Sequence record: OL362275.1
Direction: 5' to 3' (one strand)
Source: Escherichia phage HC12
Length of the DNA stretch: 39,342 nt
A program made the position numbers and the translations under genes. Shown one piece after another: positions 739 through 36,390 of this stretch; the stretch's first letter is position 1; each line of letters opens with the position of its first letter. Below the pieces are notes generated by a model. The model had not been told where the DNA came from, did no database searches, and saw only the letters and a list, made by a program, of their open reading frames with translations.

Positions 739-789
739 CTACAGGGCCTTTGAGTCTACATCTGAAGGCCCTGACTGATAGTCACTAAC
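739..789 (+). promoter_or_regulatory. Early intergenic hairpin element, RNase III-type processing site candidate
   Basis: CTACAGGGCCTTT...AAGGCCCTGACTGATAGTCACTAAC: 7-bp inverted repeat GGGCCTT/AAGGCCC followed by the recurrent CTGACTGATAG motif. Lies just upstream of the first early gene. Confidence 0.4.
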
Positions 790-805
790 TTAAAGGATGG
801 ACACT

Positions 806-1051
806 ATGAAACACTTAAGCACAATCACTAATCGCAATGAAGTATTCGTGAACACTAAAGGTTATGCGTGGATTCAGCTTAAAGAGATGACAGGAGCGCG
901 TCACCGTGTGGTAGTGCGCAAGGTATCAAGCAAGCAGTTCAGCAACTACAGCGTCGATACTGTGCGTATAGACAACGAGACATACCTGATAGACTCGCAG
1001 ATAACCGTGAGTCCTACAGTGGGCGTCTCAGCTCCTTATTTCGCTAACTGA
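806..1051 (+). CDS. Hypothetical early protein (first early gene)
   Basis: ORF 797..1051 in the track; AAAGGA Shine-Dalgarno favours the second ATG at 806. No motif recognised. Confidence 0.6.
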   Translation: MKHLSTITNRNEVFVNTKGYAWIQLKEMTGARHRVVVRKVSSKQFSNYSVDTVRIDNETYLIDSQITVSPTVGVSAPYFAN

Positions 1052-1061
1052 GAGTGATTAA

Positions 1062-1106
1062 CTACAGGTCGTTAGACTGATAGCGGCCTGACTGATAGTC
1101 ACTAAC
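1062..1106 (+). promoter_or_regulatory. Early intergenic hairpin element, RNase III-type processing site candidate
   Basis: CTACAGGTCGTTAGACTGATAGCGGCCTGACTGATAGTCACTAAC, second copy of the CTACAGG...GGCCTGACTGATAG...TAAC element, immediately upstream of the ocr-like gene. Confidence 0.4.
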
Positions 1107-1134
1107 ACATAATTAACTTTGAGAGGATATAACT

Positions 1135-1641
1135 ATGGAACGTAATGCTAACGCATACTATGAGCTGCTGGCTGCAACCGTTGAGGCATTTATCGAGCGT
1201 ATTCAGTACGACCACCTGACTCAAGATGACGACTACAGCACTGCGCTGCATGAGGTCGTAGACGGTCAGGTTCCACACTATTACCACGAGATTTTTACGG
1301 TGATGGCTGCTGATGGTATAGACAACGAGTTCGAAGACTCTTGGATGATACCTGAAACCAAGGACGTAACGCGTATCCTACAAGCTCGCATCTATGAGGC
1401 GCTTTATAACGATGTGTCTAATAGCTTGGATGTAGTCTGGTTTGAGGATGAAGAGGCAGACGAAGAGGATGAATATTGGGTAGTTGACGCTAAAACAGGC
1501 GCAATAATCATGCAAGCTGTAGCTCTTGAGGTCGCTACTGCATGTGCCAAGGTTAACTATGCGGCAGGTCGCCACCTGAAGGTGGAAGACATCAATGATA
1601 ACGTAGTGTTCGACCCTGCGGCTGAGGACTGCGAGCGATGA
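1135..1641 (+). CDS. ocr: Ocr-like DNA-mimic anti-restriction protein (gene 0.3 homolog) with C-terminal extension
   Basis: Strongly acidic. Core [45 protein letters not shown] aligns closely with T7 Ocr ([45 protein letters not shown]). Good RBS GAGAGGA. 168 aa versus 117 aa in T7. Confidence 0.85.
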   Translation: [168 protein letters not shown]

Positions 1642-1787
1642 TAACTTACGGTTTATGCCAGCACCACGTCACTAACGCCCGGCTTATGGTCAAGACCGGG
1701 CAGTTAAACCACGATGCGACTATGCGTCACCTGAAAGCGGTCTACGAGGGCCGCAAGCGTATACACGACAGTTTACACGCTAAGTGA
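1638..1787 (+). CDS. Hypothetical small protein (49 aa), start coupled to the ocr stop (ATGA overlap)
   Basis: Hand-translated ORF MITYGLCQHHVTNARLMVKTGQLNHDATMRHLKAVYEGRKRIHDSLHAK. Absent from the track (under 60 aa). No independent RBS. Confidence 0.3.
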   Translation: MITYGLCQHHVTNARLMVKTGQLNHDATMRHLKAVYEGRKRIHDSLHAK

Positions 1788-1791
1788 CAGA

Positions 1792-1835
1792 CTACAGGTC
1801 ATCAATGCTGGTGGCCTGACTGATAGGCATTAACA
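1792..1835 (+). promoter_or_regulatory. Early intergenic hairpin element, RNase III-type processing site candidate
   Basis: CTACAGGTCATCAATGCTGGTGGCCTGACTGATAGGCATTAAC, third copy of the element; AGGTCAT...TGGCCT imperfect stem. Confidence 0.4.
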
Positions 1836-1850
1836 ACTGAGAGGGAAGAT

Positions 1851-2078
1851 ATGAACACAATCACTGGTGCCATAACCAAAGGTTTTCGAGCAATTTTCGG
1901 TGAAACGCAAGAAGTATGCACCAATCATAAATTCGTACTTTCTTGCGTAGCAGGTGACGAGTTTGACGGGTTCGATAAACTGGTGGTTTGCGACCATTGC
2001 GGACAAGAGGCTATCCAACACTCAAACGGTAAATTTGAATTAATAGACGATAGCCTTACAGAAGGAGACGGCGAGTAA
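1851..2078 (+). CDS. Hypothetical early protein with four cysteines (possible zinc ribbon)
   Basis: RBS GAGAGGGAAG then ATG. 75 aa with C23, C32, C47, C50 (VVCDHCGQ). Confidence 0.65.
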   Translation: MNTITGAITKGFRAIFGETQEVCTNHKFVLSCVAGDEFDGFDKLVVCDHCGQEAIQHSNGKFELIDDSLTEGDGE

Positions 2079-2210
2079 CCTACATAAACAGGAGAGAACC
2101 AAATCATAGCTTGACCATAACACTGACGTGATGGTACTGAGTGATAGACGAGAGGTCATCGACTGATAGGTGGCCTCAAAGATTACCACTTACATTGATA
2201 GGAGTTAACT

Positions 2211-2315
2211 ATGAGCACTGCAATCATCTGGACTATCTCAGGCTTCGTAGCGTGGGGAATGTTTACTCTAGTCTGCAAACTACCGGTCCTTACTCAACTG
2301 TTATGGGGCTTATGA
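2211..2315 (+). CDS. Hypothetical small hydrophobic peptide (34 aa)
   Basis: GGAG RBS 7 nt upstream of ATG. Hand translation MSTAIIWTISGFVAWGMFTLVCKLPVLTQLLWGL. Its stop overlaps the next start as ATGA. Confidence 0.4.
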   Translation: MSTAIIWTISGFVAWGMFTLVCKLPVLTQLLWGL

Positions 2316-2515
2316 CTGTGAGTATCGCACTATTGATAGCCATAGGCTATGGACTTATCGCCTACGTGCTGGTGAGAGACATCAACAAAGCGCGTAAAGT
2401 CTACAAATTCAACTATGTACGTCTGGGTAGCTGGACTGTACGTCAACCTAACGGACGATTCATGCGTAACTTAGCGAACGTCTGGGATATAGCAACACTT
2501 GGGAGCAAACTGTAA
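2312..2515 (+). CDS. Hypothetical early membrane protein (one predicted TM helix)
   Basis: In-frame part of track ORF 2141..2515, which begins with GTG inside the upstream element. ATG at 2312 overlaps the preceding stop. Hydrophobic N-terminus MTVSIALLIAIGYGLIAYVLV. Confidence 0.5.
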   Translation: MTVSIALLIAIGYGLIAYVLVRDINKARKVYKFNYVRLGSWTVRQPNGRFMRNLANVWDIATLGSKL

Positions 2516-2841
2516 TGAACAAGTCATACGGGATTAATCTGGTACACTCTATGGACGCAGACATGCAAATGTTAAGCCTACTGGCTACCGGGTATCGTCA
2601 CGGAACGTCAAGTCACTCCGCACGTCAACAGCAGGAGCGGGACCGGGTACTGCAAGCAAGACTCCGGGCTGAGGGCCATATATACGAACTGATGAGTCTG
2701 GCGTATGGTGGACGACCAATCACTGACGATGGTAAACTTTTAGTCTCAGGCTGGAAGGCGATAGACCAACGGTCAACCATCAAGCACACGACTCATGGTG
2801 ACTTCAGTCATCTTCACGCTAACCCACTGATATGCAAGTGA
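2515..2841 (+). CDS. Hypothetical early protein (108 aa), sits where the gene 0.7 kinase lies in T7
   Basis: ATG overlaps the previous stop (TAATG). No kinase motifs seen. Last ORF before the RNA polymerase gene. Confidence 0.6.
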   Translation: MNKSYGINLVHSMDADMQMLSLLATGYRHGTSSHSARQQQERDRVLQARLRAEGHIYELMSLAYGGRPITDDGKLLVSGWKAIDQRSTIKHTTHGDFSHLHANPLICK

Positions 2842-2846
2842 TTCTG

Positions 2847-2869
2847 ACTTAACTATCACTATAGGACTC
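2847..2869 (+). promoter_or_regulatory. Phage RNA polymerase promoter (ACTTAACTATCACTATAGGACTC) upstream of gene 1
   Basis: Matches the 11-copy phage promoter family (CACTATAGG core, +1 G at 2864). Confidence 0.65.
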
Positions 2870-2938
2870 AAGGTCTAAGACTCCAAGTGAAAGACCAAAG
2901 AGACTCTAAGTGAAAGACTAATAACAAGGACTTTAAGT

Positions 2939-5620
2939 ATGAGCGTCATCTCTATTGACAAGCACGACTTCTCTGATGTGTCGAACGCCATTGAGCCGTT
3001 TAACCTACTGGCTGACCACTACGGGCAAGACCTTGCAGTCAAACAGCTTCAGCTTGAGCACGAGGCATACACTGAAGGCGAGCGACGTTTCATCAAGAAC
3101 CTTGAGAGACAGACTGAGCGAGGGGAACTGGCAGACAATCAGGTCGCCAAGCCTTTGATGCAGACTCTGGTCCCTAAGATTGCGCAAGCCGTCATGGAGT
3201 GGCACGAAGGCCTAGACGGGAAGCTGTCAACCTCGCGTCCTAGTGTAGCGTTCACCATGTTGAGCACTGAAGAGAAGGCCGTAAAGGACCGCTCTATGCG
3301 CATCTCCTGTGAGTCCGCTGCGGTTATCATACTGAAGGTCATACTCTCCAAGCTGGTCAAGCCTGAAGGGATACCGATTACACCGATGGCCTCCGCGATA
3401 GGTCGCACACTTGAGGACGAAATCCGCTTCGGTCGCATCCGTGACAAGGAGAAAGAGCACTTCAAGAAGGCGATAGCTGATAACCTGAATAAGCGGACCG
3501 GGGCGTCATACAAGAAAGCCTACATGCAAGCGGTCGAGGCGTCCATGCTGGAGCAAGGCCAACTGGAAGATGCGTGGGGGACTTGGAGTCCTACAGAGGC
3601 TGTCCACGTTGGCATCAAGATGCTCGAGATTGTCATCCAGTCAACACAACTGGTCGAGCTTAAGCGGTACGGTGCTGGCAATGCAGCGGCTGATGTAGAG
3701 ATGGTCCACCTGTCAGACTTCTGGGTCAAGAAGATGGCACAACGAGGATTCAGCCTTGCGGGTATAGCTCCAGTCTACCAGCCTTGCGTCGTTCCACCTA
3801 AGCCGTGGACTGGTGTCGTAGGCGGTGGGTACTGGGCCAAAGGACGCAGACCATTACCACTGATTCGCTTAGGGTCTAAGTCTGCGGTAGCACGCTACGA
3901 AGACGTGTATATGCCTGAAGTCTATGACGCTGTGAACATCATTCAGAATACACCTTGGAAAGTGAACAAGAAGGTTCTGGAAGTGGTGAACATGGTCGAG
4001 AAGCTGAACAACACGCCTATTGATGACATCCCTCAGATGGAACCGCTGAAGCCTGAGGACTATGCGGGTGAGACTGAAGAAGAACTCAAGGCATGGAAGA
4101 AGGCTGCTGCTGGTATCTATCGCCGCGAGAAGGCCAGACAGTCACGAAGATTATCACTGAGCTTTATCGTTAACCAAGCAAACAAGTTCTCTCAGTTCAA
4201 GGCCATCTGGTTCCCGTACAACATGGATTGGCGAGGTCGTGTCTACGCTGTCCCGATGTTCAACCCTCAGGGTAACGACATGCAGAAGGGCCTCCTGACT
4301 CTGGCAGTCGGCAAGCCTATTGGTGCTGACGGTTTCAAATGGCTGAAGGTCCACGGTGCAAACTGTGCGGGTGTCGATAAAGTCACCTTCGATGAGCGCA
4401 TCAAGTGGGTGGAAGACAACCACGAAAACATCATGGCTGCTGCTAAGGCACCGATGGATAGTATTGAGTGGTGGGGCAAGTTAGACTCTCCGTTCTGTTT
4501 CCTTGCGTTCTGCTTCGAGTATGCTGGCGTAATGCACCACGGCCTGTCTTACTCTTGTTCGCTACCGATAGCGTTCGATGGGTCCTGCTCTGGGATTCAG
4601 CACTTCAGCGCGATGCTTCGTGACCACATCGGTGGACATGCAGTAAACCTGACGCCATCCGGTAAGGTCCAAGACATCTACCGCATCGTGTCTGACAGCA
4701 TTGAGGAGGAGCTTAAAGTCCTGCTGATTAACGGCACTAACAACGAGATGGTCACTCACGAGGATAAGAAAACTGGTGAGATTACCGAACGTATCAAGCT
4801 GGGGACACGAGAGCTGGCCCGTCAGTGGCTGACATACGGTATGTCACGCAAGGTCACTAAGCGTTCAGTCATGACTCTGGCATACGGGTCGAAAGAGTAC
4901 GGCTTCGCAGACCAAGTTTACGAGGACATCGTGATGCCAGCGATTGACTCAGGGTCTGGCGCTATGTTCACTGAACCAAGCCAAGCGTCTCGCTTCATGG
5001 CTAAGATGATTTGGGAAGCTGTGAGTGTGACCGTAGTTGCTGCGGTTGACGCGATGAAATGGCTTCAGGGTGCTGCCAAGCTGCTTGCTGCTGAAGTGAA
5101 GGACAAGAAGACTGGCGAAATCCTGAAGCCATGCCTTCCGGTACACTGGGTAACACCTGATGGTTTCCCTGTCTGGCAGGAATACCGCAAGAAGGATACC
5201 ACTCGTCTGAACCTGATGTTCTTAGGGTCATTCAACATTCAGCCTACCGTCAACAGAGGTACGAAGAAAGAGCTGGACAAGCACAAGCAGGAGTCAGGCA
5301 TTAGCCCTAACTTCGTCCACTCACAAGATGGTAGCCACCTGCGGAAGACTGTAGTCCACACTCACCGCAAGTATGGCGTGATGTCATTCGCAGTGATTCA
5401 CGATAGCTTCGGGACCATACCTGCTGACGCTGAGTATCTGTTCCGTGGTGTCCGTGAGACGATGGTCGAGACATACCGCGATAACGATGTGCTGCTTGAC
5501 TTCTACGAGCAGTTTGAATACCAGCTTCATGAAAGTCAGCGCGACAAGTTGCCTGAGCTTCCGAAGAAAGGTAAACTGAATATCGAAGACATCTTGTCTT
5601 CAGACTTTGCATTCGCTTAA
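2939..5620 (+). CDS. 1: DNA-directed RNA polymerase, single-subunit T7-type
   Basis: 893 aa, colinear with T7 RNAP. Conserved blocks WFPYNMDWRGRVYAV, FDGSCSGIQHFSAMLRD, HDSFGT and C-terminal DFAFA. Specificity-loop region reads RLNLMFLGSFNIQPT. Confidence 0.97.
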   Translation: MSVISIDKHDFSDVSNAIEPFNLLADHYGQDLAVKQLQLEHEAYTEGERRFIKNLERQTERGELADNQVAKPLMQTLVPKIAQAVMEWHEGLDGKLSTSRPSVAFTMLSTEEKAVKDRSMRISCESAAVIILKVILSKLVKPEGIPITPMASAIGRTLEDEIRFGRIRDKEKEHFKKAIADNLNKRTGASYKKAYMQAVEASMLEQGQLEDAWGTWSPTEAVHVGIKMLEIVIQSTQLVELKRYGAGNAAADVEMVHLSDFWVKKMAQRGFSLAGIAPVYQPCVVPPKPWTGVVGGGYWAKGRRPLPLIRLGSKSAVARYEDVYMPEVYDAVNIIQNTPWKVNKKVLEVVNMVEKLNNTPIDDIPQMEPLKPEDYAGETEEELKAWKKAAAGIYRREKARQSRRLSLSFIVNQANKFSQFKAIWFPYNMDWRGRVYAVPMFNPQGNDMQKGLLTLAVGKPIGADGFKWLKVHGANCAGVDKVTFDERIKWVEDNHENIMAAAKAPMDSIEWWGKLDSPFCFLAFCFEYAGVMHHGLSYSCSLPIAFDGSCSGIQHFSAMLRDHIGGHAVNLTPSGKVQDIYRIVSDSIEEELKVLLINGTNNEMVTHEDKKTGEITERIKLGTRELARQWLTYGMSRKVTKRSVMTLAYGSKEYGFADQVYEDIVMPAIDSGSGAMFTEPSQASRFMAKMIWEAVSVTVVAAVDAMKWLQGAAKLLAAEVKDKKTGEILKPCLPVHWVTPDGFPVWQEYRKKDTTRLNLMFLGSFNIQPTVNRGTKKELDKHKQESGISPNFVHSQDGSHLRKTVVHTHRKYGVMSFAVIHDSFGTIPADAEYLFRGVRETMVETYRDNDVLLDFYEQFEYQLHESQRDKLPELPKKGKLNIEDILSSDFAFA

Positions 5621-5635
5621 CAGGAGGAGAAGTAT

Positions 5636-5876: not shown

Positions 5877-6092
5877 ATGAAATTTGCACACAAGCATACT
5901 GGCGTTAATGGTGGGACTCAAATCGTGACCGTAACAGAACACAACGGCAAGGGTCTGGTGAAGACCACGGTCATCCCTACAGAGATGTCCAAGCAGCTTA
6001 ACATCCCGTTCAAGACTCTTGTATATCTGGTCGAGTCCAGCCACGAGAAGTACCTGAAGGACGCAGTGTCCAAGCTGGGGAAGGACAAATGA
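5877..6092 (+). CDS. Hypothetical protein
   Basis: RBS AAGGAGAGAG then ATG. 71 aa ORF. Confidence 0.6.
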   Translation: MKFAHKHTGVNGGTQIVTVTEHNGKGLVKTTVIPTEMSKQLNIPFKTLVYLVESSHEKYLKDAVSKLGKDK

Positions 6093-6166: not shown

Positions 6167-6167
6167 C

Positions 6168-6190
6168 CCTAAACTATCACTATAGGATTA
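6168..6190 (+). promoter_or_regulatory. Phage RNA polymerase promoter (phi1.1-like)
   Basis: CCTAAACTATCACTATAGGATTA, promoter family member, +1 G at 6185. Confidence 0.7.
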
Positions 6191-6232
6191 GACTCAAGGT
6201 CATGACTCAAAGTCGTGGCCTTCATGATTAAC
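6188..6232 (+). promoter_or_regulatory. RNase III-type processing hairpin (R1.1-like)
   Basis: TTAGACTCAAGGTCATGACTCAAAGTCGTGGCCTTCATGATTAA. Same conserved element recurs at 13046 and 36348, at the positions of T7 sites R1.1, R4.7 and R18.5. Confidence 0.55.
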
Positions 6233-6263: not shown

Positions 6264-6443
6264 ATGTATCAGAACACTATCAACTTCGAGCGCATCCGTG
6301 AACGTCAGCAGACTGAAGGTTACATCCCTAAGGGCCGCAAGCTAAACAAGACCAAGCGTGGCGGTGGTGTCAAGGGTGCTTTCCGTAACGCTGAAGGCAA
6401 AGACTCTATGGTCAACCAAGAGAAGTATTTCGTAGGAGCGTAA
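6264..6443 (+). CDS. 1.1: gp1.1-like small basic protein
   Basis: Hand-translated 59-aa ORF MYQNTINFERIRERQQTEGYIPKGRKLNKTKRGGGVKGAF...; contains GRKLNKTKR as in T7 gp1.1. Absent from the track (under 60 aa). Confidence 0.65.
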   Translation: MYQNTINFERIRERQQTEGYIPKGRKLNKTKRGGGVKGAFRNAEGKDSMVNQEKYFVGA

Positions 6444-6446: not shown

Positions 6447-6698
6447 ATGAGCAGACGTTGGGTATTCGATGCGTCAACCAGCCAGTGGTCATCGTTAGGC
6501 CGGACACACCGCGAGCTGAGTGAGGCAGGACTTGAGGTCAGAATGGATGTCCTGCCGTGCTCCGGAAAGACTCTGGTCCTAATCATTGAAGCAGACGGTT
6601 GGAGGATTCTGGTATCCCGCGAATTTACCAAAGATGAAATCTTTAGCTGTGAGCAATGGTGCTTACAACAATTGAACGCTTATAGGAGCTGGAAATAA
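6447..6698 (+). CDS. 1.2: gp1.2-like protein (in T7 an inhibitor of host dGTP triphosphohydrolase)
   Basis: RBS AGGAG. 83 aa. Immediately precedes ligase as in T7. Sequence similarity to T7 gp1.2 is only loose; the call rests mainly on position. Confidence 0.6.
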   Translation: MSRRWVFDASTSQWSSLGRTHRELSEAGLEVRMDVLPCSGKTLVLIIEADGWRILVSREFTKDEIFSCEQWCLQQLNAYRSWK

Positions 6699-7771: not shown

Positions 7772-7854
7772 CTAAATGTCAACCCAGTGGTCTTCGGACT
7801 GCTGGGTTTCTTTGCTTTGTGCTAGAAAGCTATCGTCTGGGCCACCAGCATGAC

Positions 7855-10531: not shown

Positions 10532-10979
10532 GGTACAGTTCAATCCACGGTCCCGGACCGACGCTATCTTCGTACACTGTTCGGCTACCAAGCCAGAGAT
10601 GGACATCGGGGTAGAGACCATCCGTATGTGGCACAAGCAGCAAGGCTGGCTGGACGTAGGCTACCACTTTATCATCAAGCGCGATGGCACTGTGGAAGAG
10701 GGACGCCCGGTCAATGTCGTAGGGTCACACGTTAAGGACTGGAACTCACGGTCTGTAGGCGTCTGCCTTGTAGGTGGAATTGACGCTAAGGGCAAGTTTG
10801 AAGCTAACTTCACTCCGGCCCAGATGAACTCCCTGCGCAACAAGCTGGCTGACCTGAAGGACTTGTATCCTCAGGCAGAAATCAAATCACATCATGACGT
10901 AGCACCAAAGGCGTGTCCAAGTTTCGACTTGCAACGCTGGCTGTCTACCAATGAACTGGTCACTTCCGACCGAGGCTAA
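10521..10979 (+). CDS. 3.5: N-acetylmuramoyl-L-alanine amidase (T7 lysozyme)
   Basis: 152 aa, near-colinear with T7 gp3.5: TDAIFVHCSATKP, GWLDVGYHFIIKRDGTVE, HHDVAPKACPSFDL, C-terminal ELVTSDRG. Confidence 0.95.
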   Translation: MVSKVQFNPRSRTDAIFVHCSATKPEMDIGVETIRMWHKQQGWLDVGYHFIIKRDGTVEEGRPVNVVGSHVKDWNSRSVGVCLVGGIDAKGKFEANFTPAQMNSLRNKLADLKDLYPQAEIKSHHDVAPKACPSFDLQRWLSTNELVTSDRG

Positions 10980-10997
10980 ACTATCACCGTAGGGATG
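10975..10997 (+). promoter_or_regulatory. Phage RNA polymerase promoter, variant CACCGTAGGG core
   Basis: GCTAAACTATCACCGTAGGGATG; two core substitutions relative to the consensus. Confidence 0.55.
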
Positions 10998-11042
10998 AGA
11001 CCACGAGTCTTGTCCCTTTGTTCGCATTTGAGATTAAGAAAT

Positions 11043-11121
11043 GTCTCCATAGCTCAAACGGTAGAGCGGCGGGTCGTGATGGCCTATTGCGATTAGGGTT
11101 CGAATCCCCGTGGAGACGCCA
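11043..11121 (+). tRNA. tRNA-like element (canonical acceptor, D and T arms, encoded CCA; anticodon arm non-canonical)
   Basis: GTCTCCA...TGGAGAC perfect 7-bp acceptor stem. D arm GCTC-AAACGGTA-GAGC with G18G19. T arm with GGTTCGAATCC. Discriminator G then CCA. The 26 nt between the D and T arms do not form a clean 5-bp anticodon stem; best fold gives loop GTCGTGA (anticodon CGU, Thr) with an imperfect stem. Confidence 0.45.
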
Positions 11122-12878: not shown

Positions 12879-13043
12879 GTGTTAAAGAAACTTAAAGCTC
12901 GCTACCATCGGTTCATGTACAAATGGTGGAGCGACGAAGCAACCTGCCTGTCGAACATTCTGGGAGACCAGCGGTTCAACTCTGAGGCATGGAAGAAAGC
13001 TAACCGGAAGTTCATGTATCACTTCTTGCGTACAGACTTCTAG
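12879..13043 (+). CDS. Hypothetical small protein (54 aa, GTG start)
   Basis: GGAGGA RBS 6 nt upstream of GTG. Hand translation (M)LKKLKARYHRFMYKWWSDEATCLSNILGDQRFNSEAWKKANRKFMYHFLRTDF. Position of T7 genes 4.3/4.5. Confidence 0.45.
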   Translation: MLKKLKARYHRFMYKWWSDEATCLSNILGDQRFNSEAWKKANRKFMYHFLRTDF

Positions 13044-13090: not shown

Positions 13091-13106
13091 AAACGGAGGA
13101 TTAACC

Positions 13107-15278
13107 ATGTTTGACCTTAAGAGTATCTGGGGTTCTGACATCGAGACCAACGGTCTCCTTGATACAGTCTCCCAGTTTCACTGTGGGGTCCTGATTAACG
13201 CCGAGTCGAATGAGACCCTTAAGTATGGGGTAGCTCCGATGGTCGGTATCGTCGGTGGCTTCAAAGAGTATGTGCAGAAGGTGGAAGAGATTGCCGCATC
13301 ACCTGATGGTATGCTGGTATTCCACAACGGTATCAACTATGACGTCCCGGCTATTGACAAGCTGAAGCGTCTGTACTTCGGGAAACGCTTTAACTTCCCG
13401 AAACACAAGATGATTGATACCTTGGTGCTGGGTCGCTTGATGTATCCCAACATTAAGTTCTCAGACATGGGCGCGGTGAAAGCTGGTCGTCTGCCTCCTA
13501 AGATGATGGGACGCCAGTCTCTTGAGGCTTGGGGTTATCGTCTCGGTGAGATGAAGGGTGAGTACAAACACGATTACGTTGCCAAGTGCAAGGCAGAAGG
13601 TATCGAATATAAGGCTGGGGACGAATGGTTGTTCCCGTCTCAGGAGATGCTGGACTATAACGTTCAGGACGTTGTGGTCACACTGGCGTTGTTCAAGAAG
13701 TTCCTGACTGACAAGTATTACTTCCAGTCTGAACAGTTCGCTTTCGACCAGATTTATGCGTTGCGTCTGGAACATGATGCTGCGTGGACCTGTGCGAAGA
13801 TGGAACGTAACGGCTATCCGATGAACACCGAGATGGTCGAAGGTTTATATCGTGAACTCACCGTCAAACGTGCAGAGCTGTTGGACAAGCTGCGTTCGAC
13901 TTTCGGCAGCTGGTACGCACCAAAGGGAGGCAAGGAGTTCTTCAAGCACCCACGGACAGGCAAGGACCTTCCGAAGTATCCGCGAGTCGTGTATCCTAAG
14001 GTCGGGTCAGTATTCAAGAAGCCGAAGAACAAAGCTCAACGCTTAGGTCTGGAGCCTTGCGAGTTCGACTCACGAGACACGATGGAAGGAGCACCGTTCA
14101 CGCCAATCACTTACGTTGAGTTTAATCCGGGAAGCGGAGACCACTTAGCGAAAGTCTTGATGGAGCGTGGTTGGGAGCCTGTGGACTTCACTGACACTGG
14201 GAAACCTGTAGTCGATGACGAGACGTTAGAACACGTTAAGCTACCAGACGCAGAGGCTCAGGCTTGCGTAGAGCTGGTCCGTGAGTATCTGGTAGTCCAG
14301 AAGCGCATCGGTCAGGCGGCTGAAGGTAAGAACGCATGGTTGAAACTTGTAGGTCCAGACGGACGTATGCACGGCTCAATAAACCCATGCGGGGCAGTAA
14401 CCGGACGTGCGACCCATAGTTCACCAAACATGGCTCAGGTACCTGCTAACGGTGCTCCGTATGGTGAGACTTGCCGTGGTGCTTTCGGTGCAGCGTGGAA
14501 CAAGAAGGACGGCAAGCCAGACCCTTGGATTCAAGTTGGTGTGGATGCCTCAGGTCTTGAGCTTCGTTGTCTTGGGAACAGAGCGGCTCCGTTTGATGGT
14601 GGTGCCTATGCGAAGACTGTGGTCGAAGGTGACATCCACTGGGCCAACGCAGTAAACGCTGGGTTAGCACCTAACGTCCAACGCGATAAGTCTAACCACG
14701 ACCATGAGGCTTTCCGTAACAACGCTAAGACGTTCATCTACGCGTTCCTGTATGGTGCAGGGGCCGCTAAGATTGGACTGATAGTAGGCGGTGGTAAGAA
14801 GGAAGGTTCAGCGCTCATGAAGAAATTCATTGAGGGTACACCAGCTATCAAGGACCTCAGGGAAGCTGTGCAGAACACGCTCATCTCTGAGTCCAAATGG
14901 GTAGACGGTGAGAACATCGTGAAGTGGAAACGCCGCTGGCTGAAAGGTCTGGACGGTCGACGCATCCACATCCGGTCGCCACACTCAGCACTGAACGCCT
15001 TACTTCAAGGTGATGGTGCGGTAGTCTGTAAGCACTGGATTGTTGAGACTGAACGTATGCTTGAAGCCGAAGGATATGTCCACGGCTGGGATGGAGACTT
15101 TGCGTACATGGCATGGGTGCACGATGAGCTACAAATTGCCTGTAAAAACAAGGACTTAGCAGAACGCGTAGTAGAAATTGCTCAACTTGCTATGCGTAAG
15201 GTTGGTGAGTTCTATAACTTTAAATGTGTGTTAGACACGGAGGGTAAAATTGGACCAACGTGGAAAGAATGCCATTGA
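13107..15278 (+). CDS. 5: DNA polymerase (family A, T7-type)
   Basis: Colinear with T7 gp5: exo motif DIETNGL, FHNGINYDVPA, pol motifs GRATHSSPNMAQVP and VHDELQ. Start set to ATG 13107 (GGAGGA RBS); the track start at 13071 is GTG inside the hairpin. Confidence 0.97.
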   Translation: MFDLKSIWGSDIETNGLLDTVSQFHCGVLINAESNETLKYGVAPMVGIVGGFKEYVQKVEEIAASPDGMLVFHNGINYDVPAIDKLKRLYFGKRFNFPKHKMIDTLVLGRLMYPNIKFSDMGAVKAGRLPPKMMGRQSLEAWGYRLGEMKGEYKHDYVAKCKAEGIEYKAGDEWLFPSQEMLDYNVQDVVVTLALFKKFLTDKYYFQSEQFAFDQIYALRLEHDAAWTCAKMERNGYPMNTEMVEGLYRELTVKRAELLDKLRSTFGSWYAPKGGKEFFKHPRTGKDLPKYPRVVYPKVGSVFKKPKNKAQRLGLEPCEFDSRDTMEGAPFTPITYVEFNPGSGDHLAKVLMERGWEPVDFTDTGKPVVDDETLEHVKLPDAEAQACVELVREYLVVQKRIGQAAEGKNAWLKLVGPDGRMHGSINPCGAVTGRATHSSPNMAQVPANGAPYGETCRGAFGAAWNKKDGKPDPWIQVGVDASGLELRCLGNRAAPFDGGAYAKTVVEGDIHWANAVNAGLAPNVQRDKSNHDHEAFRNNAKTFIYAFLYGAGAAKIGLIVGGGKKEGSALMKKFIEGTPAIKDLREAVQNTLISESKWVDGENIVKWKRRWLKGLDGRRIHIRSPHSALNALLQGDGAVVCKHWIVETERMLEAEGYVHGWDGDFAYMAWVHDELQIACKNKDLAERVVEIAQLAMRKVGEFYNFKCVLDTEGKIGPTWKECH

Positions 15279-17006: not shown

Positions 17007-17080
17007 TTTACTGGGCCGGACTTCTGGCCCTTTACTGCATGTACAAGTGGTTCGGGTCAAACAACCGTCCTAAACACTGA
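17003..17080 (+). CDS. Hypothetical small hydrophobic peptide (25 aa, GTG start overlapping the gene 6 stop)
   Basis: Hand translation (M)IYWAGLLALYCMYKWFGSNNRPKH. Speculative. Confidence 0.2.
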   Translation: MIYWAGLLALYCMYKWFGSNNRPKH

Positions 17081-17132
17081 GTCTAACCGATAGTCATATC
17101 CTATCAATCCAACAGTCATCCATAGGTGAAAC

Positions 17133-17155
17133 ACTAAACTATCACTATAGGGACT
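17133..17155 (+). promoter_or_regulatory. Phage RNA polymerase promoter (phi6.5-like)
   Basis: CACTAAACTATCACTATAGGGAC, +1 G at 17150. Confidence 0.7.
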
Positions 17156-17216
17156 TTATGACCTAAGATATGACTATAAGATATACTTTAGTCTTAACTT
17201 AAAGAGGAGATTCAAG

Positions 17217-17489
17217 ATGGCGATTAATGCTATTGAAAACGTTGTTAAGCAGTTACAGGAAGAAAGACTTGATGTCCCGAACATCTCACAGTCTGCCATC
17301 CAGTTCCTGCACGTATTGTTCAACGCAAGCTACGCTGAGAAGATGGGCGTTATCAGTCTCCTCAAGCAGCAAGGCTACAGCGATGCGTTCATTGCCGGGT
17401 TCATCAAGGGTCTCCAGTATTGCTCTGACACTCTCGACTCTGCGGTTGCTATGCGTCGTGAGCTGAAAGATACCGTTCAGTTTGATTAA
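17217..17489 (+). CDS. Hypothetical protein (gene 6.5 position)
   Basis: RBS AGAGGAG. 90-aa ORF directly after the promoter. Confidence 0.65.
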   Translation: MAINAIENVVKQLQEERLDVPNISQSAIQFLHVLFNASYAEKMGVISLLKQQGYSDAFIAGFIKGLQYCSDTLDSAVAMRRELKDTVQFD

Positions 17490-21005: not shown

Positions 21006-21028
21006 ACTAAACTATCACTATAGGGAGA
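21006..21028 (+). promoter_or_regulatory. Phage RNA polymerase promoter (phi10-like), full consensus ending GGGAGA
   Basis: ACTAAACTATCACTATAGGGAGA, best copy of the family, upstream of the major capsid gene. Confidence 0.8.
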
Positions 21029-21130
21029 CCAAGAGAAAGACTCAAGGTTTCCCTATTACTTCAGTCCATACGGATTGGGCGTACAGCAAGTAATAAACTT
21101 TATCTTTCAATTGAATAGGAGAATTATCAT

Positions 21131-23405: not shown

Positions 23406-25763
23406 ATGCCGCTTATTACGCAAAGCATAAAAAATCTTAAGGGTGGCATTAGCCAACAGCCTGACATCCTGAGGTTCTCAGACCAAGGCGAGGCCCAAGT
23501 TAACTGCTGGTCATCCGAGAGTGATGGCCTCCAGAAGCGTCCACCTACAGTCTTCAAGAGACGTATTAACATCGACGTTGGGAGCAACCCTAAGTTCCAC
23601 CTGATTAACCGTGACGAGCATGAGCAGTATTACATCGTGTTCAACGGGTCAAACATTCAGGTAGTTGACTTGAGTGGTAATCAATACTCAGTTTCCGGTG
23701 CGGTAGATTACGTTAAGTCGTCCAACCCGCGAGATGACATCCGTGTCGTTACTGTTGCAGACTATACGTTCATCGTGAACCGTAAGGTTGTCGTTAAAGG
23801 TGGAAGCGAGAAGTCACACTCTGGTTATAACCGCAAAGCACGAGCTTTAATTAACCTGCGTGGCGGACAGTATGGTCGAACCCTTAAGGTGGGAATCAAC
23901 GGTGGCGTTAAGGTCTCGCATAAGCTACCAGCAGGTAATGATGCCGAGAATGACCCACCTAAGGTGGACGCTCAAGCCATCGGTTCAGCTCTGAGAGACC
24001 TTCTTGTTGCTGCTTACCCTACCTTCACGTTCGACCTTGGGTCTGGATTCCTGTTAATCACTGCCCCTTCAGGGACTGACATTAACTCAGTGGAGACGGA
24101 GGATGGCTATGCTAACCAGCTAATCAGCCCAGTACTCGACACGGTGCAAACAATCTCTAAGTTGCCTCTTGCAGCTCCAAATGGGTACATCATTAAGATT
24201 CAAGGTGAGACCAACAGTAGCGCCGATGAATATTACGTGATGTATGACTCCAACACTAAGACGTGGAAGGAGACAGTAGAGCCGGGAGTGGTCACTGGGT
24301 TCGATAACACCACAATGCCTCATGCTCTGGTGAGACAATCTGACGGCTCCTTTGAGTTCAAGACTCTGGACTGGTCTAATCGTGGTGCTGGTAATGATGA
24401 CACAAACCCTATGCCTAGCTTCGTGGATGCTACGATTAACGATGTGTTCTTCTACAGGAATAGGCTGGGGTTCTTGTCAGGCGAGAACGTAATCATGAGC
24501 CGTTCAGCCAGCTACTTTGCGTTCTTCCCTAAGAGTGTGGCTACACTGAGTGATGATGATCCTATTGACGTAGCTGTAAGTCATCCTAGAATCTCAATCC
24601 TTAAGTATGCCGTTCCGTTTAGCGAGCAGCTACTACTTTGGTCGGATGAGGTGCAGTTCGTGATGACAAGCTCTGGGGTCCTTACCTCGAAGTCTATCCA
24701 GCTTGATGTAGGCTCAGAGTTTGCCCTAGGTGACAATGCCAGACCGTTCGCTGTAGGACGCTCAGTCTTCTTCTCAGCACCTCGTGGGTCATTCACCAGC
24801 ATTAAGAGATACTTCGCTGTAGCAGATGTGTCTGACGTGAAGGATGCCGATGATACCACTGGACACGTACTGTCCTATATCCCTAACGGGGTGTTTGACA
24901 TTCAAGGTACAGGGACTGAGAACTACATCTGCGTCAACTCTACAGGTGCATACAACCGAATCTACATCTACAAGTTCTTGTTTAAGGACGGCGTACAGCT
25001 TCAAGCCTCTTGGTCACACTGGGAGTTCCCTAAAGATGATAAGATTCTGGCGTCTGCTTCTATTGGCTCTACCATGTTCATCGTTCGTCAGCACCAAGGC
25101 GGAGTGGACCTTGAGCACCTTAAGTTCATCAAAGAGGCGACTGACTTTCCGTCAGAGCCGTATAGACTCCACGTTGACTCCAAGGTGTCTATGGTCATCC
25201 CAATTGGCTCGTTTAATGCTGACACATATAAGACTACGGTTGACATTGGTGCTGCTTATGGTGGTAATGCCCCGTCTCCCGGTCGGTACTATCTGATTGA
25301 CAGTCAGGGTGCTTATTTGGACCTTGGGGACTTGACCAGTATCTCTACTGTGATTACCCTCAACGGCGATTGGTCAGGACGTACAGTGTTCATCGGGCGG
25401 TCCTATCTGATGTCCTACAAGTTCTCACGGTTCCTGATTAAGATTGAAGATGATAGTGGCACCCAGTCTGAAGACACTGGTCGTCTACAGCTTCGTCGGG
25501 CTTGGGTCAACTACAAGGACACTGGAGCTCTGAGACTCATTGTCAGAAACGGTGAGCGAGAGTTCGTTAACACCTTTAATGGGTACACCCTTGGTCAGCA
25601 GACCATAGGGACTACTAACATTGGTGACGGGCAGTATCGCTTCGCTATGAATGGTAACGCATTGACCACGAGTCTAACCTTAGAGTCCGACTATCCTACC
25701 CCGGTGTCCATCGTTGGGTGTGGCTGGGAGGCGTCATACGCTAAGAAAGCTCGTTCCGTCTAA
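23406..25763 (+). CDS. 12: Tail tubular protein B
   Basis: 785 aa, colinear with T7 gp12: SQSIKNLKGGISQQPDILR, INRDEHEQYY, FFYRNRLGFLSGENVI, DDDPIDVAVS, GRLQLRRAWVNY, GCGWE. Confidence 0.97.
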   Translation: MPLITQSIKNLKGGISQQPDILRFSDQGEAQVNCWSSESDGLQKRPPTVFKRRINIDVGSNPKFHLINRDEHEQYYIVFNGSNIQVVDLSGNQYSVSGAVDYVKSSNPRDDIRVVTVADYTFIVNRKVVVKGGSEKSHSGYNRKARALINLRGGQYGRTLKVGINGGVKVSHKLPAGNDAENDPPKVDAQAIGSALRDLLVAAYPTFTFDLGSGFLLITAPSGTDINSVETEDGYANQLISPVLDTVQTISKLPLAAPNGYIIKIQGETNSSADEYYVMYDSNTKTWKETVEPGVVTGFDNTTMPHALVRQSDGSFEFKTLDWSNRGAGNDDTNPMPSFVDATINDVFFYRNRLGFLSGENVIMSRSASYFAFFPKSVATLSDDDPIDVAVSHPRISILKYAVPFSEQLLLWSDEVQFVMTSSGVLTSKSIQLDVGSEFALGDNARPFAVGRSVFFSAPRGSFTSIKRYFAVADVSDVKDADDTTGHVLSYIPNGVFDIQGTGTENYICVNSTGAYNRIYIYKFLFKDGVQLQASWSHWEFPKDDKILASASIGSTMFIVRQHQGGVDLEHLKFIKEATDFPSEPYRLHVDSKVSMVIPIGSFNADTYKTTVDIGAAYGGNAPSPGRYYLIDSQGAYLDLGDLTSISTVITLNGDWSGRTVFIGRSYLMSYKFSRFLIKIEDDSGTQSEDTGRLQLRRAWVNYKDTGALRLIVRNGEREFVNTFNGYTLGQQTIGTTNIGDGQYRFAMNGNALTTSLTLESDYPTPVSIVGCGWEASYAKKARSV

Positions 25764-25787
25764 CTTATTGAAGGGCCTATAGATTTA

Positions 25788-25810
25788 CCTTAACTATCAC
25801 TATAGGGACT
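25788..25810 (+). promoter_or_regulatory. Phage RNA polymerase promoter (phi13-like) flanked by a 12-bp inverted repeat
   Basis: CCTTAACTATCACTATAGGGACT. AAGGGCCTATAG at 25771-25782 is the exact reverse complement of CTATAGGCCCTT at 25809-25820. Confidence 0.7.
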
Positions 25811-25839
25811 ATAGGCCCTTAAGGTTATAAGGAGACTTT

Positions 25840-26310
25840 ATGTATATTCGCAAGGCTACGGAACAGGATGTCCGCTACTTTCTGTGGCATCTTTCAGCAG
25901 ATGATGTTAATGAGTGCAAAGCAAACTATGGGTCAACCGTTGGTCTCTCTGAAAGACTGCTTAAGCATCTATCTCCGTCATCTGTGGTTTTAACGAATGG
26001 TGTAGGCGAAGTGTTTGCCTATGGTGGAAACCAAGGGGATAACGTATGGTTCTTGACTTCCGGTATTGTCCATAAGCTGAGACCTAAAGAGAAGCGGGAG
26101 TTTATAAAGCGTATCTCTGAGTACAGGGACTTAATGTTAGACCAATACGGGACCATCTGGAACTACGTGTGGTCAGGCAATAAGTCTCACATTAAATTCT
26201 TGAAGTTGCTTGGGGCTAAATTCCATGATGATTGGACTATAAGCCCAGTAACTGGTGATCGTTTTCAACTATTCACTATCTCTAAGGAGGACGTATGTGC
26301 GAGCCAGTAA
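25840..26310 (+). CDS. 13: Gene 13-position protein (internal virion/assembly protein by synteny)
   Basis: 156-aa ORF with AAGGAG RBS directly after the promoter and before gp14. Assignment by position only. Confidence 0.6.
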   Translation: MYIRKATEQDVRYFLWHLSADDVNECKANYGSTVGLSERLLKHLSPSSVVLTNGVGEVFAYGGNQGDNVWFLTSGIVHKLRPKEKREFIKRISEYRDLMLDQYGTIWNYVWSGNKSHIKFLKLLGAKFHDDWTISPVTGDRFQLFTISKEDVCASQ

Positions 26311-33518: not shown

Positions 33519-33564
33519 TGGAGGCGCTACCATAGGTCTCCGTTTAAATCACAAAGGAGGCATA

Positions 33565-35745
33565 ATGTCCACGATTACACAATTCCCTTCAGGAAACACT
33601 CAGTACAGGATAGAGTTCGACTACCTAGCCAGAACGTTTGTTGTTGTTACGCTGGTGAATAGCTCTAACCCTACCCTGAACCGTGTACTGGAAGTTGGTA
33701 GAGATTACCGATTCCTTAATCCAACGATGATTGAGATGTTGGCTGACCAATCAGGTTTCGACATCGTTCGTATTCACCGTCAGACTGGAACTGACTTAGT
33801 GGTAGACTTCAGGAATGGCTCAGTGTTGACGGCTAGTGACCTGACCAATTCAGAGCTTCAGGCTATCCATATTGCAGAAGAAGGTCGAGACCAAACGGTT
33901 GACTTAGCGAAGGAATATGCCGATGCTGCTGGTAGCTCTGCTGGCAACGCTAAGGATAGCGAGGACGAAGCACGACGAATGGCGGCGAGTATCAAGGAAT
34001 TTGGTAAAATTGGCTATATTACCCGTCGCTCCTTCGAGAAAGGCTTCAACGTTACAACATGGAACGAGGTCCTGCTATGGGAAGAGGATGGTGCTTATTA
34101 CCGCTGGGATGGTACGCTTCCAAAGAACGTTCCCGCTGGTTCAACTCCTGAATCATCTGGTGGTATTGGGCTGAGTGCGTGGGTTAGTGTTGGTGATGCG
34201 TCACTTAGAGCAAACCTGTCTGATAGTGATGGCGCTAAATACATAGGCAGTGGAGAAAGGACATTACTTGAGCACAACAATGATGTTTTGCACTCAAAAG
34301 ACTTCCCAACACTGCAGGCAGCTATAGATGCATCTTTGCAAAAAAATGATCTACTGGTGTCTCCTGGAAATTATACTGAAAAAGTTACTATTGGAAACGC
34401 GCAGTTAAAAGGTGTTGGCGGGGCCACGGTACTAAAAACTCCGGCAGACTTTACAAACACTGTTCAGGTTAATTTAGCTACACCTAATTGGCAATTCCGC
34501 CATAGTGGTGGTTTTGCTATAGATGGTTCCGGGACAACCGGGGCCGTAGGTATTAGTTTTGACCCGTCAGACCAATATTCCGGACGTCATAATTTTAGTG
34601 ATGTATACATCCACAACATCAACAAGGCCATTCAGAAGCCTTCCGGGAACATCGGCAATACTTGGAGAAATATTGGGATATCTACGTGTGATTGGGGGTA
34701 TTACGCGATTAGTGGCTCAGAGATGCATTGCGGGGCCGATACCCTCTACAATATCCACTTCGATGGCATCTCCACCTATGCAGTCTATCTAGACGGCACT
34801 GTCGATAATGGCGGGGTGGGCGCATGGTGGCTTAAAGACTCCATTATTGAGGCTTCCGGAGGTGGCGGGATATACTTAAAAAGTAAATCGGGCGACTGTC
34901 CTACATCTCCATGCGGGGTATCCAATATATGGATGGAAGCGATCGCAACATCACCGGCTGTTCAGGTAGACGGCGTGGCGCAAAAACCGCGAGTTCTCAA
35001 GTTGGTAGACACAGCGATATTCTTTGCTGAGTATTCTTATCTCAACAACATCGAGCTATCCAACTCCAACTTAGTAACTTATGGTTGCCGTTTTGACAAC
35101 GCTGATGGTAATCAGGATATTGTCGTGGATGCACAAAGTACCATTGTAGCCCATGACGTGTATTTAAACGGCAGTTCTGGAAAGGACGTTATTGTGGAGT
35201 CCGTCGCATCGCAATCTGCAACTATAGCTACCACAAACTTATCTCTGAGGGGCAACTTAACAAGAGGGAGAGTATTTAATACGCCGACAGGGAATAAATT
35301 AATGGCTATCACATTTGACTCAGGTAGCCATAAGTTTTCTGGCAGCGGCACCGTTAACGGTTCGACTGTATCTGACGGACTTCACGCCGCTACATGTACC
35401 GAATTTTCATTCCCCGGAGCCGGTTTATATGAAATGGTAGCGACAAGAACAACCATTACATCCGGTAGATGGTACGTGTGGGGAGTTAACTCACGCCTAC
35501 AATCTGGCTCGGCGGATATTAGTATAACGTCAGGTATTACCATGGGTAGTGTTTACACAAAGCCGGGGGAGTGGATTAGCACTTTCGGTGTAGGAAAGGC
35601 ATCTACCACTGGCACTGTAGCGCTATACGTTTCCACAGGAGGAGGTTCGGGAGCTACGGTCAGATTCAGTGACTTTTTCATCGCTGAGTTTACGACGCAA
35701 GCTCAGGCTTTAGCTTTCGCCAATTCAAGGATGTCGTTATCATAA
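33565..35745 (+). CDS. 17: Tail fibre / tailspike: conserved T7-type N-terminal adapter, divergent C-terminal receptor-binding domain
   Basis: N-terminal 150 aa (FDYLARTFVVVTL, DYRF, LVVDFRNGSVLTASDL, IHIAEEGRD) align with T7 gp17. Remainder unrelated to T7, Gly/Ser/Thr/Asn-rich with repetitive beta-strand-like segments. DNA becomes AT-rich from about 34200. Confidence 0.9.
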   Translation: MSTITQFPSGNTQYRIEFDYLARTFVVVTLVNSSNPTLNRVLEVGRDYRFLNPTMIEMLADQSGFDIVRIHRQTGTDLVVDFRNGSVLTASDLTNSELQAIHIAEEGRDQTVDLAKEYADAAGSSAGNAKDSEDEARRMAASIKEFGKIGYITRRSFEKGFNVTTWNEVLLWEEDGAYYRWDGTLPKNVPAGSTPESSGGIGLSAWVSVGDASLRANLSDSDGAKYIGSGERTLLEHNNDVLHSKDFPTLQAAIDASLQKNDLLVSPGNYTEKVTIGNAQLKGVGGATVLKTPADFTNTVQVNLATPNWQFRHSGGFAIDGSGTTGAVGISFDPSDQYSGRHNFSDVYIHNINKAIQKPSGNIGNTWRNIGISTCDWGYYAISGSEMHCGADTLYNIHFDGISTYAVYLDGTVDNGGVGAWWLKDSIIEASGGGGIYLKSKSGDCPTSPCGVSNIWMEAIATSPAVQVDGVAQKPRVLKLVDTAIFFAEYSYLNNIELSNSNLVTYGCRFDNADGNQDIVVDAQSTIVAHDVYLNGSSGKDVIVESVASQSATIATTNLSLRGNLTRGRVFNTPTGNKLMAITFDSGSHKFSGSGTVNGSTVSDGLHAATCTEFSFPGAGLYEMVATRTTITSGRWYVWGVNSRLQSGSADISITSGITMGSVYTKPGEWISTFGVGKASTTGTVALYVSTGGGSGATVRFSDFFIAEFTTQAQALAFANSRMSLS

Positions 35746-35889
35746 AAACAACCTCAGCCGAATCGGGTTATTTATCATCAGAACGGTATTGAATAATCGA
35801 AGGTTGTGGAGGTAGAGGATAACTACACGTTGACCAACGTATGATAACAACTTTGGGTCACGGACGACCCGCTTTAAACTGGAGGTTTT

Positions 35890-36084
35890 ATGATTGAGTT
35901 AGACTTCAAGAATGAGGTCCTCAAAGCCTCGCCTATCGTCGGGACCGCTGCGGCTGATGGTGCCAGTCGGTTCTTCTTTGGGCTAACGCTCAACGAATGG
36001 TTCTACGTCGCTGCTATCGCGTACACCGTGGTGCAGATTGGCGTCCTAATTTACAAGACGATTAAGAGCGGAGGTAAGACATGA
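35890..36084 (+). CDS. 17.5: Holin (class II)
   Basis: 64 aa, near-colinear with T7 gp17.5: LDFKNEVLKASPIVGTAAADGASRFFFGLTLNEWFYVAAIAYTVVQIG. Confidence 0.9.
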   Translation: MIELDFKNEVLKASPIVGTAAADGASRFFFGLTLNEWFYVAAIAYTVVQIGVLIYKTIKSGGKT

Positions 36085-36344
36085 CGCAGATGGACTTAGA
36101 GAAGTTCCTGTTAATGCTGGACACAGAACGTGCTAGACTAATGCTGCAAGACCTGCGGGATGACTCTAAGCGTTCGCCCCAGCTCTACAACGCCATTGAG
36201 AAACTGCTTGCTCGACACAACTTTGTGTTAAGCAAGGTGTCTGTGGACGAGAAGACGCTGGCGGATATGGAGGCCTTGAACGCAGAGTACGATAAGGTGC
36301 TTTCAGCTACTGAGGATAATGACACCGGGTATGGTGTTCAATAA
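36081..36344 (+). CDS. 18: Terminase small subunit
   Basis: 87 aa; FLLMLDTERARLMLQDLRDDSKRSPQLYNAIEKLLARH aligns with T7 gp18. Confidence 0.9.
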   Translation: MTQMDLEKFLLMLDTERARLMLQDLRDDSKRSPQLYNAIEKLLARHNFVLSKVSVDEKTLADMEALNAEYDKVLSATEDNDTGYGVQ

Positions 36345-36347
36345 GTG

Positions 36348-36390
36348 TTAGACTCAAGGTCATCGTCAGGTGGCCTTTATGGTTAACACT
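36348..36390 (+). promoter_or_regulatory. RNase III-type processing hairpin (R18.5-like)
   Basis: GTTAGACTCAAGGTCATCGTCAGGTGGCCTTTATGGTTAAC, third copy of the conserved element, at the position of T7 R18.5. Confidence 0.55.

Follow-up and report, generated by a model that had tools for sequence, protein, structure and literature searches.

The RNase III sites of bacteriophage T7 are bipartite hairpins with an asymmetric internal loop, placed between genes on the sense strand. T7 R1.1 is cut at a single phosphodiester (PMC4858673), and internal loops confine cleavage to one strand, so that a 3' hairpin is left as protection from 3'-5' exonucleases (PMC1540722). The T7 sites considered here are R0.3, R0.5, R1, R1.1, R1.3, R4.7 and R18.5, together with the non-canonical R3.8, R6.5 and R13; in addition, ten stem-loops carry the label RNase III recognition site in the record of phage T3 (NC_003298), and that of the Yersinia phage phiYeO3-12 (NC_001271) has ten putative RNase III sites. 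In Escherichia phage HC12 (OL362275.1), whose whole analysed stretch of 39,342 nt is hereafter called the window, we find seven hairpins that share this architecture and placement. All are homologous to the T7/T3 R-sites and are very probably processing signals for host RNase III, as is probably a further hairpin of the R3.8 type. The seven sites all lie on the coding (+) strand, facing the direction of transcription, and are listed here with cut positions assigned by alignment to the T7 sites.

E1, 729-794, + strand: hairpin 5' of the first early open reading frame (ORF; 797-1051), in an R0.3-like position; predicted cut 776^777 (CCCUGACU^GAUAG).
E2, 1052-1111, + strand: hairpin separating ORF 797-1051 from the ocr-like gene 0.3 (1135-1641), beginning directly 3' of the stop codon of the preceding ORF; predicted cut 1093^1094.
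E3, 1782-1839, + strand: hairpin between ORF 1638-1787 and ORF 1851-2078; predicted cut 1821^1822.
E4, 2139-2198, + strand: hairpin separating ORF 1851-2078 from two small ORFs, 2211-2315 and 2312-2515; predicted cut 2180^2181 (GGCCUCAAA^GAUUA).
L1, 6183-6243, + strand: R1.1 equivalent, 3' of ORF 5877-6092 and 5' of the gene 1.1/1.2 homologues (6264-6443, 6447-6698); predicted cut 6225^6226 (GGCCUUCAU^GAUUA).
L2, 13041-13099, + strand: R4.7 equivalent, between ORF 12879-13043 and the DNA polymerase gene (13107-15278); predicted cut 13081^13082 (GGCCUUUAU^GAUUA).
L3, 36343-36398, + strand: R18.5 equivalent, flanked by gene 18 (36081-36344, small terminase) and gene 18.5 (36441-36890, Rz-like spanin); predicted cut 36380^36381 (GGCCUUUAU^GGUUA).

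All seven fall within the ~9% of the genome that lies outside ORFs (P~6e-8 by chance), and four of them abut or overlap the stop codon of the preceding gene. A first-pass annotation of this DNA had listed six hairpins, three early and three late, as RNase III sites. Each of the six is found where it was placed, and the early copies do separate the early cistrons, every one lying in a gap between ORFs. The early set was nevertheless incomplete, a fourth copy at 2139-2198 (TAGACGAGAGGTCATCGACTGATAGGTGGCCTCAAAGATTA) having been missed, and early and late copies are not two sets but a single family, aligning together with the T7/T3 sites. The arms ascribed to the late copies are exact in all three, separated by spacers of 11, 9 and 6 nt rather than a uniform ~10 nt; the early consensus GGCC(C/T)TGACTGATAG describes the first copy, but the second and third read (C/T)GGCCTGACTGATAG, one base shorter.

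The repeats themselves are far from random. The 15-mer TAGACTCAAGGTCAT has exactly three exact matches in the window (6189, 13047 and 36349), as does the 16-mer GTGGCCTTYATGRTTA (6215, 13071 and 36370), the two occurring in pairs (6189/6215, 13047/13071 and 36349/36370) and both in numbers far above the shuffled expectation. When up to three mismatches are allowed, the 15-mer gives 13 matches against 1.45 expected, a count reached in 0 of 100 shuffles. Both late-arm motifs are also matched in E4 (2145-2185), with three mismatches each, and CTGACTGATAG occurs exactly at 771, 1088 and 1816.

For comparison, T7 sites, which the T7 record examined does not list, were extracted at cut coordinates that are reportedly those of Dunn & Studier (1983); at these positions the canonical sites show the same core each time, cut in the same column (…CCUUUAU^GAUU…). 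The seven window hairpins align column-for-column with the seven canonical T7 and seven canonical T3 sites as one family, and the core …ACUCAAGGUC…GUGGCCUUUAUGAUU… of the experimentally mapped T7 sites is present in them. The core ACUCAAGGUCAU...GUGGCCUUUAUGAUU is identical or nearly so to that of T7 R1.1/R0.5, which the three L copies match over ACUCAAGGUCAU and GUGGCCUU(U/C)AUG(A/G)UU. At the DNA level, T7 R1.1 and R0.5 read ACTCAAGGTC..GTGGCCTTTATGATT, and L1-L3 carry the same 12+15 nt save for T/C and A/G variants, with the same eight upper-stem pairs and the same loop nucleotides as R1.1. In E1-E3 the CAGG/CCUG base of the helix is held in common with T7/T3 R1, E4 having GAGG/CCTC instead.

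A covariance model built from the 14 T7/T3 sites only (model R2, hereafter the independent model), run unfiltered on both strands of the 39 kb, gives exactly seven matches, with 28-55 bits and E-values of 6e-13 to 4e-5, the next match having E>1. The top match is L3 (54.8 bits, E 6.1e-13), followed by L2 (48.5 bits, E 4.1e-11), L1 (40.0 bits, E 1.3e-8), E2 (39.2 bits, E 2.2e-8), E3 (33.8 bits, E 8.8e-7), E1 (28.2 bits, E 3.9e-5) and E4 (28.0 bits, E 4.2e-5). A second model that included the window copies (model R1) scores E1 at 45.9 bits; it recovers 8/10 of the annotated putative sites of phiYeO3-12, on which it was not trained, with zero extra matches, as well as the R6.5 sites of T7 and T3, which were absent from its training. 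The models cross-detect the R1.1, R4.7 and R18.5 sites of T3, phiYeO3-12 and the window, and a small model built from T7/T3 thus cleanly finds such signals in other T7-like genomes. At gathering thresholds no Rfam family matches the hairpins, a tRNA being the sole match in the window.

The seven copies also share a fold. An upper stem of 9-12 bp is present in all of them, and in E1, E2, E4 and L1-L3 the minimum free energy (MFE) structure comprises a lower stem, an asymmetric internal loop and the upper stem, the consensus having 7+8 pairs with a 4/5-nt internal loop. The imperfect stem with an internal bubble that the first-pass annotation described for the late copies is seen in all copies but that at 1782-1839, where the MFE fold holds the upper stem only. 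Folding z-scores range from -3.2 to -5.1 in five sites, namely E1 (-25.6 kcal/mol, z -4.3), E2 (-23.3 kcal/mol, z -5.1), L1 (-20.2 kcal/mol, z -3.9), L2 (z -4.1) and L3 (z -3.2). In six of the seven sites there are 3-4 G·U pairs, and the + strand folds 3-11 kcal/mol better than the - strand. Because of these G·U pairs the fold is specific to the sense strand, which points to a signal at the RNA level, and such asymmetry between the strands argues for selection on the RNA.

Covariation points in the same direction. In a 21-sequence alignment, compensatory double changes occur in 9/15 pairs. A pattern scan of viral contigs found the motif to be widespread in T7-like contigs of ~38-45 kb (at least 120 stretches), in which the model identifies at least 144 copies, at least 113 of them distinct. 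Among the 113 distinct copies listed, 96.6% of cells are paired, a share that falls to 79% in shuffles and to 27-50% with partners slid; double changes are seen in 13/15 pairs, including all seven pairs of the lower stem. The lower stem, which holds most of the covariation, was left unconstrained by the pattern that seeded this alignment. Two pairs are near-invariant in the copies listed, a G-C (113/113) and an A-U (110/113, the rest U-A), and both fit the reported pb1/pb2 preferences with boxes mapped to columns by inference.

The positions of the sites are also conserved. R1.1, R18.5 and the R3.8-type element are syntenic with T7. L1 (6188-6232 in the first-pass annotation) was correctly placed at R1.1, since a phage promoter stands before it and the homologues of genes 1.1 and 1.2 after it; gene 1.2 is identified by the dGTPase-inhibitor homologue 3' of L1. 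Its layout is that of T3, in which phi1.1 (5984-6006) overlaps R1.1 (6003-6053), the window having the following element at this position.

Promoter abutting L1, 6172-6187, + strand: AACTATCACTATAGGA, with a transcript start at ~6185, within the lower stem of L1.

The assignment of L2 (13046-13090) to R4.7 is right in the sense of T3 and phiYeO3-12, where the site likewise stands directly before the DNA polymerase gene (in T3, R4.7 at 12970-13018 and gene 5 at 13043), but not exactly in that of T7, which has gene 4.7 between R4.7 and gene 5; the ORF upstream of L2 (12879-13043) is a homologue of gp4.3 in EcoDS1. L3 (36348-36390) lies, as had been proposed for R18.5, between genes 18 and 18.5, the same place as in T3 and phiYeO3-12. 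In the closer relatives, model R1 identifies six orthologous hairpins in K1F (at 708, 1031, 1767, 5567, 12854 and 36447) and five in EcoDS1 (at 902, 1491, 6049, 13042 and 35937), near-identical to E1, E2, E4, L1, L2 and L3. E1 is identical in K1F and near-identical in EcoDS1, E2 is missing from EcoDS1, and no orthologue of E3 is detectable by the covariance model in either phage. E4 corresponds to 1767-1826 in K1F and 1491-1550 in EcoDS1, and its upper stem in K1F differs from that of the window by the change of both U·G pairs to C-G and of an A-U to G·U; in the L3 orthologues the apical stem and loop differ and pairing is kept. The K1F and EcoDS1 records that we examined carry no annotation on these orthologous hairpins.

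The arrangement departs from T7 in several respects. The window has four sites among the small early genes where T7 has R0.3 and R0.5, E3 and E4 being extra also relative to T3 and phiYeO3-12, and its early copies carry a distinct 3'-loop sequence, CUGACUGAUAG, unlike T7. No site stands directly before gene 1, where a phage promoter is found instead; R1, R1.3 and an R6.5 detectable by the covariance model, all present in T3 and phiYeO3-12, are absent. T7 encodes the gp0.7 kinase, which stimulates RNase III, whereas no homologue of this protein kinase and host shut-off factor was identified across the window genome (tblastn, best E=1.1); in its absence the phage still has a complete complement of RNase III-type sites. 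The loss of R1, R1.3 and the gp0.7 kinase and the extra early sites are modest points of interest.

The early loop CUGACUGAUAG puts stop codons in all three frames, and the 3' arm common to E1 and E2 (CTGACTGATAGTCACTAAC, 771-789 and 1088-1106) has stops in all frames (TGA, TGA/TAG, TAA), which, on sequence grounds, could halt ribosomes before they unwind the hairpin.

The first 8 kb are 94-98% identical to E. coli Kayfunavirus phages (LNA5, 6925, LM33_P1 and others), and the ORF order is that of T7 (ocr, RNA polymerase, ligase, DNA polymerase, structural genes, terminase), which together indicate that the window is the complete genome of a Kayfunavirus, i.e., a K1F-like member of the T7 group. 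Its nearest relatives infect E. coli and other enterobacteria, and relatives with 95-98% identity over the first 8 kb make E. coli or another enterobacterium the presumptive host. Such hosts, E. coli (rnc) among them, are known to encode RNase III. The early unit, transcribed by the host polymerase and holding E1-E4 and L1, is closed by a terminator, for which the EcoDS1 record has TE annotated at the matching position.

Terminator, 7781-7808, + strand: intrinsic terminator, TE equivalent, with a 12-bp GC-rich stem followed by a T-run, 3' of the ligase gene.

Since L1 lies 5' of this terminator, it is present in both host-polymerase and phage-polymerase transcripts, and the label 'late' given earlier to 6188-6232 is loose.

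The mechanism that we propose for the window carries over the established behaviour of T7 R1.1, i.e., a single cut and a protective 3' hairpin. Transcription of the early region by host RNA polymerase and of the rest by phage RNA polymerase would yield long polycistronic RNAs, in which each element, as sense RNA, would form about two helical turns composed of a lower stem (7 bp), an asymmetric internal loop (4/5 nt) and an upper stem (at least 8 bp). RNase III would bind this quasi-continuous helix and, the second target being removed by the internal loop, break a single phosphodiester on the loop's 3' side. The predicted cuts follow positions 776, 1093, 1821, 2180, 6225, 13081 and 36380 and, in the R3.8-type element, 11019. 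The upstream message would then end in a hairpin directly past its stop codon and be protected from 3'-exonucleases, and the downstream message would carry a 5'-monophosphate and begin 20-60 nt ahead of its start codon. The predicted early messages are ORF797; ocr with ORF1638; ORF1851; ORF2211 through gene 1 to ORF5877; and 1.1, 1.2 and ligase. Seven canonical sites and one of R3.8 type with their predicted cuts provide a transcript-processing map for a Kayfunavirus, of use mainly in annotation, and for engineering or therapy with K1F-like phages the elements would serve as markers of safe boundaries between cistrons and of 3' ends that naturally stabilise mRNA.

The RNase III interpretation of the first-pass annotation is thus supported in silico by homology, structure, covariation and synteny, from which we infer cleavage, the cut positions and the effect on stability. 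These results support the view that the hairpins are unannotated members of a textbook class of phage RNA-processing signals, confirming a known mechanism and revealing no new one. Several observations weigh against it. The T7 cut coordinates, reportedly those of Dunn & Studier, have as their sole check here that all seven fall in one alignment column. With its flanks (1780-1845), E3 folds no better than shuffled sequences (z -0.9), and its lower stem is poor: 5/7 pairs are formed, with two non-pairs flagged, and this stem comes from the covariance-model alignment only, the strong upper stem alone appearing in the MFE fold. E4 with flanks (2125-2205) is also weak (z -1.4), with an irregular internal loop and lower stem. 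The 113-copy alignment was fitted to the model structure, and its seeding pattern fixed part of the upper stem, so pairing is inflated in that helix. A phosphorylation-dependent boost of RNase III turnover is described for T7 (PMC4858673); as the window has no gp0.7 homologue, this boost would not apply and processing efficiency may differ. Finally, the literature searched contains no report of RNase III cleavage in this phage or in any Kayfunavirus, and nothing of substance linking RNase III to K1F or the genus.

Some of these points bear on alternative readings. We consider it unlikely that the Kayfunavirus set is a rewired version of the T7 system, with an early CUGACUGAUAG subclass, different cleavage, no gp0.7 and no gene 1 site, or that the palindromes also matter at the DNA level, as Lamassu/DdmABC triggers or module-exchange junctions. 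That some copies, notably E3 and E4, are bound by RNase III and left uncut, or are no targets at all and act as structural insulators or stabilisers or as translational regulators, appears quite unlikely. The weak z-scores of these two copies and their independent-model scores, among the lowest, would agree with such a role, as would the 3' loop of E4 (UCAAAGA versus UUUAUGA) and documented R1.1 variants in which binding is uncoupled from cleavage (PMC1540722). However, E3 and E4 retain the conserved AGGUCAU/GUGGCCU upper stem, E4 is kept in K1F and EcoDS1 with structure-preserving changes, and a minimal substrate without the lower stem is still cleaved (PMC1540722). Translational regulation by L2 was considered in particular, since in its MFE fold with flanks the Shine-Dalgarno (SD) sequence of gene 5 (GGAGG, 13095-13099) pairs with CUUCU (13037-13041); sequestration of the SD was rejected, the pairing in the MFE structure having a low ensemble frequency and a register that shifts in K1F and EcoDS1. 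This SD-CUUCU pairing spans the base of L2 (13025-13100), and cleavage could unmask the SD.

A main role as DNA palindromes, whether as recombination or module-exchange junctions, replication hairpins or sequences sensed by defence systems, is very improbable. The palindromes of T7 RNase III sites, and similar sequences from a T7-like vibriophage, do trigger DdmABC (Lamassu) in either orientation and depending on stem integrity (PMC11707656), and the recurrence of the same ~30 nt at gene boundaries in many T7-like genomes could favour homologous exchange; yet triggering DdmABC is a liability to the phage and not a selected function, the 3-4 G·U pairs per site make the complementary strand fold much worse, all copies have the single orientation of transcription, and several pairs are dominated by G·U/G-C/A-U interchange, which is a signature of RNA pairing and not of DNA. 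We give next to no credence to the hairpins being transcription terminators or attenuators, although the upper stem is GC-rich and runs into a U-rich stretch (GGCCUUUAUGAUU): this tract has interruptions and pairs within the lower stem and internal loop, a terminator scan that reports the genuine TE at 7781-7808 reports 0/7 of the sites, and the genes that come next (DNA polymerase, spanin, terminase) are essential, with no phage promoter match separating them from L2 or L3. The anatomy of the hairpins excludes a terminator function. Processing by host RNase III remains the reading that we retain for all seven.

Beyond the canonical sites, three elements resemble the non-canonical sites of T7 and T3.

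R3.8-type site, 10992-11034, + strand: 5'-terminal hairpin of the transcript from promoter 10979-10994; predicted cut 11019^11020.
R13-like candidate, 25771-25820, + strand: perfect 12-bp stem (AAGGGCCUAUAG / CUAUAGGCCCUU, 25771-25782/25809-25820) around the phi13 promoter 25792-25807.
R6.5-like weak candidate, 17089-17178, + strand: 11-bp long-range stem (AUAGUCAUAUC / GAUAUGACUAU) around the phi6.5 promoter 17137-17152.

The R3.8-type hairpin (10992-11016) consists of GGGAUGAGAC-CACGA-GUCUUGUCCC, with a 10-bp stem, followed by UUUGUUCGCAUU, and folds at -14.6 kcal/mol (z -3.0). In alignment it matches R3.8 of T7 and the stem-loops annotated as R3.8 in T3 and phiYeO3-12, and it shares TCCCTTTGTTCGCATT with T7 (GTCCC... 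in the window, TTCCC... in T7). In K1F and EcoDS1 an A-U pair of its stem is replaced by G-C, a compensatory change; it is a probable eighth site. The R13-like stem, between genes 12 and 13, folds at -23.2 kcal/mol (z -3.1) and has a positional analogue in the annotated T3 R13 stem-loop (25443-25480), which overlaps phi13. The R6.5-like stem (z only -1.5) has the promoter in its loop, as do R6.5 of T7 and T3. Neither is matched by either covariance model, both having come from visual inspection and folding. Among the window, K1F and EcoDS1 the stretch around phi13 (25764-25842) is 100% identical and that around phi6.5 (17060-17220) has four differing positions, both being tighter than the 91-98% of relatives over the first 8 kb; since these regions are invariant or nearly so, there is no covariation to judge by, and the two are candidates only.

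An R1-type site before gene 1 (2840-2940) was rejected, the region having no 3' arm, no covariance-model match and z-scores of +0.3 and -0.6; it retains a 5'-arm-like ACTCAAGGTC string after the promoter, and the region as a whole is conserved among Kayfunaviruses and not alignable with T7 R1. No R1.3 equivalent was found, gene 1.2 abutting the ligase gene and thus leaving no intergenic room for one.

Eleven promoters of the phage polymerase, with consensus AACTATCACTATAGG(A/G), are found in the genome, against 0.3 matches expected. One of them, within 2851-2938 (+ strand), lies directly 5' of the RNA polymerase gene, is annotated in EcoDS1, and would allow positive autoregulation of the polymerase. 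The gene 1 leader contains an 18-nt direct repeat, AGACTC(C/T)AAGTGAAAGAC, at 2878-2895 and 2901-2918, and is conserved across Kayfunaviruses; no significant fold was detected in it (within 2851-2938).

A tRNA-Thr(CGU)-like gene (11043-11121, + strand) follows the R3.8-type hairpin and precedes the start of gene 4; it is detected by Rfam with 36.7 bits (11043-11118) and also called by ARAGORN. It is carried by an insertion of ~85 nt that is absent from K1F and EcoDS1. A 111-nt stretch at this locus recurs unchanged in 34 records of phages (of Escherichia, Enterobacter, Salmonella and others), and a few of these annotate it as tRNA-Thr or pseudo-tRNA. Finally, the transcript from the capsid-gene promoter opens with a hairpin, GGGAGACC…GGUUUCCC (21023-21053, + strand), presumably similar to the 5' stem-loop with a stabilising role in the T7 phi10 leader.

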